Assembly (NCBI GenBank): GCA_964418665.1
Contig: CAYQLZ010000007.1
Span: forward strand, 29,886 to 93,885
Source: an uncultured Dehalococcoidia bacterium
GTDB lineage: Bacteria > Chloroflexota > Dehalococcoidia > Lucifugimonadales > GCA-2712585
Reading direction: 5' to 3'
DNA length: 64,000 bases
Each line of letters starts with the position of its first letter. Position 1 is the stretch's first letter. Of the stretch, positions 12,442 to 14,320 are shown piece after piece. Both the position numbers and the translations under genes were made by a program. The notes below the pieces were generated by a model. The model did not search any database. It was not told the DNA's origin and saw only the letters and a list, made by a program, of their open reading frames with translations.

Positions 12442-13383
12442 GTGACAAGCAAAGAGAGTCTTTCCCTCGAACATTGCTTGGAAGCCATCCGGTCCGGTGA
12501 GGAGACCCCTGCCAGTTCCCTGCTGGAGCACCTGAGCGACCTGCCAGCCGCGGGAGTTGTCCAATTCGCTTCGGCCTGGAAGACCGCCTCTCGCGAAAGC
12601 AAGATTCCGATTCTGGATAGACTTATCGATATGAGCCAGGACAGGACGGAACTGGACTTCAGCGCCGTTTTCCGCCGGTGCCTCCGGGACGAAGCGGGTG
12701 AGGTGCGGCAGCGGGCCATAGAAGGGCTGTGGGAGCACGAGGAACGACGACTCATTGCGCCCCTGTGTGAATTGCTTGCCCAGGACCCTTTGGCTTCGGT
12801 GCGCGCCACTGCCGCCGCCGCTCTTGGCAAGTTCGCCGAACTCGCCCAGCAGGGCAAGCTGCTTCGCAAGGATGGCCCACGCATCCAGGAATGCCTGCTG
12901 GCAGCCCTGCAGAATGAAATGGAGGATATGACGGTCCGTCGTCGCTCCCTGGAGTCCGTGGCCGTACTGAACTCCCCGAAGGTGGAGGAGTTCATCCTCT
13001 GGGCCTACGCCAACGACGATCCGGCTTTCAAGGGTAGCGCCCTGTATGCAATGGGTCGCACCGGCGAGATTCGCTGGCTGGAATGCCTGGTAAAGGAGAC
13101 CCAGAATCAAAGCCCGCTTCTGCGATTCGAGGCGGCAAATGCCTGCGCCCAGTTGGAAGAGGAAGACGCAGTGCCTCACCTGGTACCGCTTATGGATGAC
13201 GACGACCTGCAGGTGCAGCTTGCGGCCATCAGGGCAGCGGGAGCCATCGGAGGTCCGCTGGCCAAGAAGGCGCTGCGACGCTGCATCGCGGAAGGAGAAC
13301 CCGCCGTAGAGGACGCCGCCCGCGAGTCGCTGGAGATGGTGGACGCCATGGACGACGTCTACACCTTCAACTACTTACGCTAG
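12442..13383 (+). CDS. HEAT-repeat protein
   Basis: Repeated helical units carry VR..A...LG-type motifs (DEAGEVRQRAIEGL, DPLASVRATAAAALGKF, DMTVRRRSLESV, SPLLRFEAANACAQL, DLQVQLAAIRAAGAIG). The in-frame GTG at 12442 lies just after the pmbA stop. Confidence 0.65.
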   Translation: MTSKESLSLEHCLEAIRSGEETPASSLLEHLSDLPAAGVVQFASAWKTASRESKIPILDRLIDMSQDRTELDFSAVFRRCLRDEAGEVRQRAIEGLWEHEERRLIAPLCELLAQDPLASVRATAAAALGKFAELAQQGKLLRKDGPRIQECLLAALQNEMEDMTVRRRSLESVAVLNSPKVEEFILWAYANDDPAFKGSALYAMGRTGEIRWLECLVKETQNQSPLLRFEAANACAQLEEEDAVPHLVPLMDDDDLQVQLAAIRAAGAIGGPLAKKALRRCIAEGEPAVEDAARESLEMVDAMDDVYTFNYLR

Positions 13384-13427
13384 TAGAACAGCTCCGTTAA
13401 CCCGTACAGGTCCATGTCCAGCTTGTG
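13379..13427. repeat. direct repeat, copy 1 (an orphan duplicate of the pfkA 3' end)
   Basis: 13384-13427 is identical over 44 nt to 14277-14320 (tagaacagctccgttaacccgtacaggtccatgtccagcttgtg). The match extends to 49 nt with one mismatch. Confidence 0.95.
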
Positions 13428-13448
13428 GGCGCTCCACCCAATCTGGCT

Positions 13449-13890
13449 CTATTTGAGACTGACCTCTCCAATCCAATGCAGGTTCCCGATGGTTGAGCCG
13501 GCTATGCTGTGAAACCTTCGATCGGCCATCCACAACTCACAGCCAAATTCTTCTGCAAGGGCTACGTAATGCGCGTCGTGAAGCTGCGCCTTGGTTAAAC
13601 CTGCCAGCCAACTATATCGCCCGTGCATGCAGCTTGGCGATGTGATGAAACTGCACCCGGGATTCTAGCAGACGTGACATTAGGAGCGTGGCTACGCTGA
13701 TGCCGAAATCCCCACGAATAACCCGTCTATGCAGGACATTAGCCACCTCGAAGGGCATCAGAGACGGAGCTATTCTGGTGACATCTTCCACTACCCAGGA
13801 TTCCAGAAGGGCGTGGGCTTTGTCCGAGTCCTCCTCTTCAACTAACCATTTGACAGCCAGACTTGCATCCACAACAACGACTCCGCTCAC
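13449..13890 (-). pseudogene. vapC: PIN-domain VapC toxin gene disrupted by a frameshift
   Basis: The N-terminal 92-aa ORF (MSGVVVVDASLAVKWLVEEEDS...) stops at 13612. The PIN C-terminal half (LAGLTKAQLHDAHYVALAEEFGCELWMADRRFHSIAGSTIGNLHWIGEVSLK) continues in a frame offset by one nt and ends at the stop 13449-13451. The total span of 442 nt is not a multiple of 3. Confidence 0.7.
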
Positions 13891-14189
13891 CCGCAGCCCT
13901 CAATCTCGGTAAGCCTGGCCTGGCGAGCTTCTCTGATCATCTCGGCAGAGTCGCCGGGCAATTTCCTGCCCTCGAAGACCTCCATGCGCAACTCTGCAAA
14001 CAATTCGTGGTCCGACTTTTTGGGGGAAGGGCTTGGCCTCCCGCCGTCCTCATCCCGGGTCAACTCCATTTCGATGATTTTCTGACAGTACTCATGCACG
14101 CTGATTCCCTTAAACTCGGCAGCAACCTTGAGCCTACGCTGAAGGTTGGCATCCACTTCCAGTGTGAGTTTCGTCTTCTGGTTTTGCAT
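13887..14189 (-). CDS. ribbon-helix-helix (CopG/VapB-like) antitoxin
   Basis: 100 aa. The N-terminal KTKLTLEVDANLQRRLKVAAEFKGISVHEYCQKII fits an RHH fold. It overlaps the vapC start by 4 nt. Confidence 0.65.
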   Translation of the reverse strand: MQNQKTKLTLEVDANLQRRLKVAAEFKGISVHEYCQKIIEMELTRDEDGGRPSPSPKKSDHELFAELRMEVFEGRKLPGDSAEMIREARQARLTEIEGCG

Positions 14190-14271
14190 TGCTTATGGTT
14201 CTCACGGTAGTTGTAGGAATCTAACTCTATGGCAAAGATGTAAGAACGTCAATGCGTGTTCGGGAGCTCGA

Positions 14272-14320
14272 GCTAATAGAACAGCTCCGTTAACCCGTAC
14301 AGGTCCATGTCCAGCTTGTG
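14272..14320. repeat. direct repeat, copy 2 (the functional pfkA 3' end)
   Basis: See copy 1. On the minus strand this copy encodes the last residues HKLDMDLYGLTELFY plus the stop codon of pfkA. Confidence 0.95.

Follow-up and report, generated by a model that had tools for sequence, protein, structure and literature searches.

The 64,000-nt stretch of DNA analyzed here, referred to as the window, lies on contig C7 of the genome under study (G000), a metagenome-assembled genome (MAG) of 2.48 Mb in 68 contigs with 4% contamination, from an uncultured lineage of Chloroflexota associated with sponges and marine habitats. It contains a two-gene toxin-antitoxin (TA) cassette of the VapBC type located between two convergent genes, the phosphofructokinase gene pfkA and a gene for a HEAT-repeat protein, and the cassette is bracketed by a 49-nt direct repeat of the pfkA 3' end. 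The closest described systems are insertions with long target duplication (ILTD), which Nobusato et al. reportedly described for restriction-modification (RM) units in 2000 in Gene 259:99. The criteria applied here are those of Furuta et al. 2010 (PMC2853133): a complete gene unit of <20 kb without transposase or integrase, an RM system as the cargo, surrounding direct repeats of >30 bp that are not a multicopy element, tRNA, or att-type RNA gene, and a single-copy counterpart of the repeat in a related genome with an empty site. The RM units show duplications of variable length, 46 to 423 bp, which span gene ends, contain no mobility gene, and undergo repeat-mediated amplification (PMC2853133).

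The pfkA locus shows a 49-nt repeat, present in two copies in the genome and belonging to none of the excluded classes, around an insert of 844 nt that comprises a promoter, vapB, and vapC. A single copy of the repeat is found at the empty site of G007 and G012, in a comparison between species of one genus, not between strains. As in ILTD, a small addiction-type unit without a mobility gene is flanked by variable direct repeats of >30 bp that correspond to the single copy at the empty site. The repeats span the gene stop, leaving the target intact, the insert differs in its GC content, and amplification can follow (compare locus L161 below). In contrast to ILTD, the cargo is a type II TA pair with an RNase toxin instead of a DNA-cutting RM system, and the DNA-breakage trigger suggested for RM systems does not apply; the same cassette also sits at the same site without a duplication, and the empty site is that of another species. 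The structure conforms to the published definition in everything but its cargo: publications have so far described ILTD for RM units only, the cargo here is a TA pair, and the literature searched contained no paper reporting ILTD for type II TA cassettes. It is considered moderately probable that the 49-nt repeat is a young ILTD scar, produced by the general recombination of the host with no dedicated recombinase.

Similar structures are known from other systems. In E. coli, single-crossover integration of circularized fragments gave duplications of 109 to 950 bp at the homologous locus and was more common than true homology-facilitated illegitimate recombination (HFIR) (PMC3240628). The insert is likewise flanked by a direct duplication of variable length made by host recombination alone, in contrast to the pfkA locus with a laboratory plasmid as the donor and with longer duplications than the 49 to 69 nt found here. 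C-terminal displacement and arrays of orphan modules at rhs, contact-dependent inhibition (CDI), and type VI secretion system (T6SS) effector-immunity loci are ascribed to HFIR (Kirchberger et al. 2017, PMC5361080, citing Jackson et al. 2009). There, homology-anchored incoming DNA brings a new 3' end together with a toxin/immunity-type module and pushes the resident end downstream with no integrase; at the pfkA locus the resident 3' end is also displaced downstream of the module, and the orphan copy adjoins the HEAT gene in its native context. Contrary to the rhs, CDI, and T6SS loci, the displaced and incoming ends are the same housekeeping sequence, nothing is diversified, and the orphan comprises only 15 codons. 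The E. coli icd elements e14 and phage 21 have the 3' end of the gene as their target, carry a replacement end, encode an integrase, measure tens of kb, and use a fixed att core. The cassette shares with them the duplicated target 3' end, the functional gene, and the orphan end at the far side of the insert, whereas an integrase, a length of tens of kb, and a fixed att core are not found here.

Structure of the pfkA/HEAT Junction

The junction comprises the following features, given as window positions with the evidence in parentheses.

12346 to 13383, plus strand: gene for a 345-aa HEAT-repeat protein, convergent with pfkA (open reading frame [ORF]; Pfam HEAT_2, E value 7e-27; orthologues in nine congeners)
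13379 to 13427, minus strand: repeat copy 1, the orphan, displaced pfkA tail with the last 15 codons plus stop (repeat search, relatives, junction in contig L015)
13428 to 13448, minus strand: 21-nt spacer forming the untranslated 3' end of the cassette, with a homologous 26-nt spacer in G010 (alignment)
13449 to 13628, minus strand: vapC pseudogene, C-terminal piece, in the frame of ...DAHYVALAEEFGCELWMADRRFH... (ORF, alignment)
13612 to 13890, minus strand: vapC pseudogene, N-terminal piece, 92 aa, N-terminal half of the PIN domain (ORF; alignment; subthreshold PIN_3 match)
13887 to 14189, minus strand: vapB antitoxin gene, 100 aa, intact, with a predicted N-terminal ribbon-helix-helix (RHH) and C-terminal helices (ORF, family alignment, AF2, Foldseek)
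14224 to 14252, minus strand: sigma-70-like cassette promoter, TTGACG-17-TAGAGT (conserved in G009, G010, and L018)
14272 to 14320, minus strand: repeat copy 2, the functional pfkA 3' end (repeat search, ORF)
14273 to 15337, minus strand: pfkA, phosphofructokinase, 354 aa from TTG or 342 aa from ATG at 15301 (PF00365, E value 3e-99; orthologues)

The repeat search of the window gives a direct repeat of 49 nt, 13379 to 13427 versus 14272 to 14320, in which 48 of the 49 positions are identical (98%). Its 44-mer at 13384 to 13427 recurs exactly at 14277 to 14320, with two matches in the window and none in 100 shuffles. The cassette and repeat are unique in the 2.48-Mb genome, as the 942-nt stretch is single and a genome-wide k-mer scan gives no third copy of the repeat. 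The single mismatch, G at 13383 and A at 14276, separates TAC from TAT in the last Tyr codon and is synonymous. An earlier reading made from the letters of the window alone (the sequence-only reading) had described this repeat as 44 nt perfect, or 49 nt with one mismatch, and had taken copy 2 for the true pfkA end. Both descriptions are borne out, the latter by the PF00365 match of a gene that ends in ...HKLDMDLYGLTELFY and the stop. That reading had placed copy 1 immediately after the HEAT stop; instead, the two overlap, with the HEAT TAG at 13381 to 13383 and the orphan pfkA stop, as its complement, at 13380 to 13382. This overlapping-stop geometry is the same as that in the empty-site relatives G007 and G012. 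The insert occupies 13428 to 14271 with every gene on the minus strand, and its GC content of 0.48 to 0.57, compared to 0.60 to 0.67 in the flanks, agrees with the lower GC noticed earlier. Neither a tRNA nor an Rfam family was found at the junction.

The Cassette Genes

With a promoter and two genes of its own, the insert forms a self-contained TA cassette, and it leaves pfkA intact. As in other VapBC systems, the antitoxin gene precedes the toxin gene, the vapC GTG start overlaps the vapB stop by 4 nt (GTGA), the promoter lies upstream of the antitoxin gene, and the PIN domain of intact orthologues scores above the cutoff (PF01850, 38 to 41 bits versus 23.6). The cassette differs in that its toxin gene is broken twice and its antitoxin family has no Pfam or NCBIfam model. 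The breaks are an in-frame TAG at 13612 to 13614, where relatives have GAA (Glu), and a 1-nt insertion near 13578 to 13586, located by alignment with G009 and G010, whose PIN toxins are intact with 146 to 147 aa. The G000 pieces give only the subthreshold PIN_3 match, and the identical 92-aa truncated vapC ORF is present in the Logan contigs SRR22586457 (L014) and SRR8304785 (L015). The sequence-only reading of an RHH antitoxin gene and a PIN toxin gene between the repeats holds for the two-gene TA cassette but not for an intact PIN gene. The dN/dS ratio of both G000 vapC pieces compared to intact relatives is 0.11 to 0.13, the same as that among intact pairs, which indicates that the toxin died recently. 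Judged from these sequences, the G000 toxin gene is a recently inactivated one that leaves an orphan antitoxin.

Searches of vapB against Pfam, NCBIfam, and PDB sequences gave no match. The AF2 monomer model, based on a 12-member family alignment (pLDDT of 73), shows an extended N-terminal segment without a strand, two helices, and two further C-terminal helices. Nearly all Foldseek matches of this model, including the top ones, are RHH proteins, with an rmsd of 1 to 1.8 Å over ~40 residues; the E values are weak, in line with a domain of just 40 residues. The N terminus of VapB is predicted to be RHH-like from fold comparison alone. With the GTGA overlap, this model and its matches correspond to the upstream, translationally coupled RHH antitoxin of VapBC systems. 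The cassette is classified as a VapBC-type II TA pair, with predicted toxicity of VapC and predicted neutralization by VapB.

The Junction in Related Genomes

The junction was compared among same-genus Dehalococcoidia MAGs (G003 to G005 and G007 to G012), of which G009 (OY762063) and G010 (OZ250180) are complete genomes carrying the cassette without a repeat; L numbers denote contigs and loci from wider searches. The flanking genes are syntenic core genes in nine congeners. An empty site, which the sequence-only reading had proposed to look for, exists within the genus: in G007 and G012, the HEAT gene abuts pfkA with one tail and with 4-nt overlapping stops (CGCTAATAG / CGTTAATAG), and the HEAT gene plus copy 1 of G000 reproduces this empty junction. 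Compared with the G007/G012 tails, the G000 copies show identities of 41 to 42/49 and 37 to 38/49 (36 to 42/49 with relatives overall), and both copies carry G000-specific bases.

G009 and G010 contain the orthologous vapBC cassette at the junction with the same edges within a few bases, no extra genes, and no flanking repeat. These coinciding edges in G000, G009, and G010 disfavor the earlier suggestion that the rest of a larger element has been deleted. No decayed tail remnants were found in the inserts of G009, G010, G003, G004, G008, and G011 (z < 1.3). The presence of the cassette in G009 and G010 with neither repeat nor remnant indicates that the repeat arose after the cassette had reached the locus.

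Close vapB relatives are very rare, with four clusters in 5.8 billion proteins, all directly 3' of pfkA. The orthologous cassette is found in this position in five other lineages, G009, G010, L018, L019, and L020, and the promoter-side junction lies 0 to 2 nt from the pfkA stop in all six lineages. The cassette of L018 is intact. In L020, vapB is intact and vapC is wholly deleted, leaving 64 nt with a GC-rich hairpin between vapB and the HEAT stop (L020:402-770). L019 shows a nonsense mutation in vapC and a second tail duplication, a 69-nt direct repeat of the pfkA tail with two synonymous mismatches and copies 990 nt apart. Its inner junction is unlike that of G000, with 69 nt following a spacer of ~95 nt compared to 49 nt following a spacer of 21 nt. 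The DNA beyond the L019 orphan tail has no match in 13 genomes of the genus, and the native context of this orphan is putative. Among the pfkA-locus cassettes, vapC has recently been inactivated in both tail-duplicated ones and intact in the repeat-less ones, which with n = 5 is a mere observation.

Each repeat pair of G000 and L019 matches the tail of its own host. All three mismatches in the two pairs are synonymous, as expected for copies descended from two functional alleles. The variation in repeat length between these independent cases argues against a fixed att core. An equation of the G000 spacer plus copy 1 (70 nt) with the 69-nt unit of L019, as a shared ancestral duplication, was considered and rejected, as L019 has the spacer motif besides a full tail.

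The remaining congeners show other junction contents, and the pfkA/HEAT junction is a general insertion hot spot. G005 and G003 have short spacers of 15 and 86 nt. The junctions of G004 and G008 hold 74-nt tandem arrays or arrays resembling miniature inverted-repeat transposable elements (MITEs). That of G011 holds an unrelated 1.1-kb insert (L011:~690-1420) with ORFs of 156 and 72 aa and no Pfam match, which may be another small cassette. MITE-like inverted-repeat elements and 74-nt tandems (GTTATGCAAAGGTCTCC..., GCGGGGACCCATCC...) are located at L009:975-1480 (G004), L010:2347-2830 (G008), and L011:374-479 (G011), and a fragment of this junction element of the congeners also occurs in the L019 spacer and in L020.

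Age and Exchange of the Cassette

A tree of nine flanking genes shows two clades with 100/99 support each, clade A with G010, G011, G004, and G008 and clade B with G000, G007, G003, G005, and G009. The cassette is found in both clades, among cassette-free relatives. For the pair G010-L018, the dS of vapC is 0.39 compared to 1.18 for pfkA; for G009-L018, it is 0.83 compared to 0.41. This disagreement between cassette and host divergences indicates that lineages have exchanged cassette alleles, which stayed at this one locus. The G000 cassette itself shows a dS of ~1 from its relatives. Since its two repeat copies are 48/49 alike and carry G000-specific bases, the duplication is far more recent than the lineage of the cassette. 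By this comparison, the cassette appears to be an old resident of the pfkA locus, and the 98% repeat appears to be young and private to G000. An ancestral cassette without flanking repeats, which the sequence-only reading had named as a finding that would speak against it, is in part what is observed: the cassette is old, repeat-less in G009 and G010, and 3' of pfkA in three further contigs, but the repeat in G000 is young.

Recombinases and Other Repeats in the Genome

Contig C7 gives no Phage_integrase match, in agreement with the earlier remark that no recombinase is present nearby; the three tyrosine recombinases of the genome are all on other contigs, the only non-Xer enzyme on C38. No integrase adjoins any of the six orthologous cassettes. 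Neither of the two marks of an integrative element, an adjoining cognate integrase and a constant att core, is found. An integron is not indicated either, as the contig carries no tyrosine recombinase and core genes in synteny flank the cassette; attC sites were not sought with a dedicated model. Further copies of the 44-mer or cassette, thought possible elsewhere in the genome or on plasmids and phages, did not turn up: there are none in the rest of the genome, and the cassette DNA has no match in plasmid and phage collections. No other gene-tail duplications around cassettes were found in the genome-wide scan of G000, and the remaining repeats are MITE-like, paralogues, or part of an integrase-linked element on C38. 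The latter (C38:3745-5710) has two identical 58-nt direct copies of the start of an AlpA/excisionase-like gene, separated by 1.9 kb, and adjoins a P4-type tyrosine integrase gene (5879-7027); it is a separate mobile element.

Related Cassettes at Other Loci

A VapC profile search identified homologous vapB-vapC cassettes, with VapB 39 to 63% identical to that of G000, at many unrelated loci of Dehalococcoidia and Chloroflexota MAGs. Flanking direct repeats are present at 8 of the 138 usable homologous loci. In the clearest case, L161:1090-3776, two cassettes alternate with copies of a dehydrogenase-gene tail in a tandem array of the order tail-cassette-tail-cassette-tail plus gene, with 1,416 nt at 97.7% identity. 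Each tail covers the terminal ~270 nt of the dehydrogenase gene, which is convergent and of the isocitrate/isopropylmalate type, and the older, upstream vapC copy is split. At L041, 56 nt of the terminator region of the upstream gene is duplicated.

L179, L182, and L190 show noncoding repeats of ~190 nt at 67 to 78% identity (L179:2285-2472 and 3459-3646), which are orthologous between genomes. Between genomes, the right-hand copies resemble each other more closely than the left copy resembles the right one within a genome. These similarities indicate an old duplication, in decay since before the genomes split; old scars thus persist and decay. L156 and L164 carry elements resembling repetitive extragenic palindromes (REPs) or MITEs at their flanks. 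L159 has a 25-nt flanking repeat, which may be a shared promoter or operator element instead.

Origin of the Duplication

Under the favored reading as an ILTD scar, a self-contained vapBC cassette has occupied the position immediately 3' of pfkA in the genus for a long time, with loss, decay, and exchange among lineages. Recently, in the line leading to G000, occupied and empty pfkA/HEAT alleles of closely related cells would have recombined, with one end joined homologously and the other illegitimately, ~45 nt inside the pfkA coding end. An alternative route, the single-crossover integration of a circularized fragment of pfkA tail and cassette, would lead to the same product. This product would have the order HEAT-tail, cassette, tail-pfkA, with the HEAT-side tail displaced in its native context and the tail on the pfkA body working. 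Because the HEAT gene and pfkA overlap at their stops, only tail-duplicating products keep both genes intact. Inactivation of the toxin gene would have followed, resulting in the orphan antitoxin. The flanking repeats may now permit either precise loss, with the empty site restored, or amplification in tandem through unequal recombination; by analogy, the L161 array would represent the stage at which ILTD units are predicted to amplify. The pathway of recombination, the direction of transfer, and a part played by DNA uptake are what we infer from the structures described above. With the homology-mediated mode of insertion favored and the site-specific attachment core disfavored by the 69-nt repeat and different inner junction of L019 and the lack of a tRNA or Rfam family, the earlier interpretation is partly supported.

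Several observations weigh against this reading. Conspecific alleles, whether empty or donor, were not seen, exact-protein lookups of HEAT and pfkA being empty, and a wobble-tolerant pattern of the pfkA tail gave 0 matches in JGI metagenome contigs. The imported segment ends ~0 to 5 nt from the cassette edge set by G009 and G010, a coincidence of ~5 to 10% under a random illegitimate joint that could mean a defined end of the element. The G010 flanks, around a cassette of foreign type, are purely of their own clade up to 25 to 60 nt from the cassette, with no imported tract in either flank, and the exchange was either internal to the cassette or involved very tight crossovers; in G000, the tract of a near-identical donor would not stand out. 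Spacer positions 13428 to 13448 show a borderline in-register similarity to pfkA (10/21, P = 0.03), which would allow for an older duplication of greater length. G000 encodes ComEC and DprA, as noncompetent bacteria do too, and Ku was not found in this genome, which makes classical end joining not available; both are weak evidence either way. In a shifted-window control, repeats are found at 7/98 loci at the true position compared to 5/102 and 2/105 at shifted positions. This modest enrichment weakens the idea that the VapBC family is generally bracketed by repeats, which is not claimed here.

Alternative Explanations

An unlikely alternative is that the duplication dates from the original insertion in the ancestor of the cassette-bearing lineages and was homogenized by gene conversion in G000 and L019, where the functional tail would repeatedly have replaced the orphan sequence, the orphan having been deleted in G009 and G010. 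The age of the cassette at the locus, the position of G000 and L019 as neighbors in the pfkA tree, the borderline spacer similarity beside copy 1, and the persistence of old flanking duplications at L179, L182, and L190 fit this history. It would have to account, however, for repeat lengths and inner junctions that differ between G000 and L019 and for a deletion in G009 and G010 that removed exactly the orphan. The spacer of G000 is not a decayed tail, given that L019 has the spacer motif plus the full 69-nt tail, and the old duplications at other loci have decayed and have not been homogenized. Tracts of 49 nt are also near the lower limit for RecA-type exchange, which counts against gene conversion.

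Quite improbable as well is a rearrangement in situ without a second allele, by template switching or by tandem duplication of cassette plus tail in a G009-like ancestor, followed by the loss of one cassette via 5-nt GCTAA microhomology. In G009 and G000, GCTAA or GCTA occurs at each edge of the cassette, and a deletion between GCTAA repeats would restore the overlapping-stop junction. A tandem duplication would give exactly the tail-to-spacer joint at 13427/13428, and L161 shows that tandem arrays of cassette plus tail exist. The scheme requires two rare steps, though, and loss via the 844-nt homology of the cassette, which brings back the ancestral state, should far outcompete loss via 5 nt. 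The three synonymous mismatches are a slightly better fit to two functional alleles than to local decay.

Site-specific integration is very doubtful. In this scenario, the cassette is an element or remnant whose attP carries a replacement pfkA end and whose integrase is encoded elsewhere or has been deleted. The duplicated 3' end regenerates the target gene, as in elements that enter the ends of protein genes, the vapC-side edge is sharp, and the recombinase on C38 offers a candidate enzyme. The promoter-side junction, constant within 2 nt in six lineages, follows equally well from a locus inherited by common descent. Against integration stand the absence of an integrase from the contig and from the neighborhood of the six orthologous cassettes and the lack of a tRNA or structured-RNA att site. 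The repeat lengths of 0, 49, and 69 nt, each repeat matching the tail of its own host, leave no common core. Furthermore, the cassette family of the pfkA site is known only there and has no match in the plasmid and phage collections.

That occupied and empty alleles of a strain mixture were misjoined by the assembler, yielding a duplication that exists in no molecule, is hardly credible: although the source is a contaminated MAG of many contigs, the repeat falls short of the usual final k-mer length, and the Logan contigs end inside it, the spacer/copy-1 joint (13428/13427) cannot arise by mixing occupied and empty graph paths, it is spanned at 100% by L015 (window 14306 to 13384) in the independent k = 31 assembly of SRR8304785, L014 matches window 14722 to 13447 at 100%, and an assembly from a separate project (L019, ENA) has a like structure.

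A Possible Recombinase-Free Life Cycle of TA Cassettes

The ILTD reading of the G000 repeat can be extended, tentatively, to type II TA cassettes in general. They may follow their own recombinase-free life cycle, as proposed for RM units, in which they enter gene ends with a long target duplication, use this duplication to amplify or to pop out precisely, and pass between related cells by ordinary recombination. The pfkA/HEAT junction would show every stage of this cycle: empty, scar-less, with two fresh, independent duplications that differ in length, with a broken toxin gene, and with the toxin gene deleted and an orphan antitoxin, while the amplified array is found at a second locus, L161. 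This series would extend the mechanism published for RM units to a TA cassette. If the proposal is true, the life cycle explains the patchy spread of TA modules without mobility genes. It predicts RecA-dependent gain, loss, and amplification through the repeats of 49 to 69 nt. For annotation, short orphan gene tails beside small cassettes would be read as recombination scars and not as genes or att sites.

Neighboring Loci in the Window

A TA-like pair lies directly upstream of pfkA on the minus strand (window 15436 to 16164). It consists of a gene for a HicB-like antitoxin of 142 aa (PF15919, E value 1.5e-4) and a partner of 98 aa with a faint HicA match (E value 0.06). No repeat was seen at its flanks, and L018 likewise has the HicB-like gene upstream of pfkA. 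A low-GC islet of two genes is located between nth and tldD (window 8696 to 9543), and homologues of one of its ORFs occupy the same place in G004, G007, and G009 with 38 to 43% identity.

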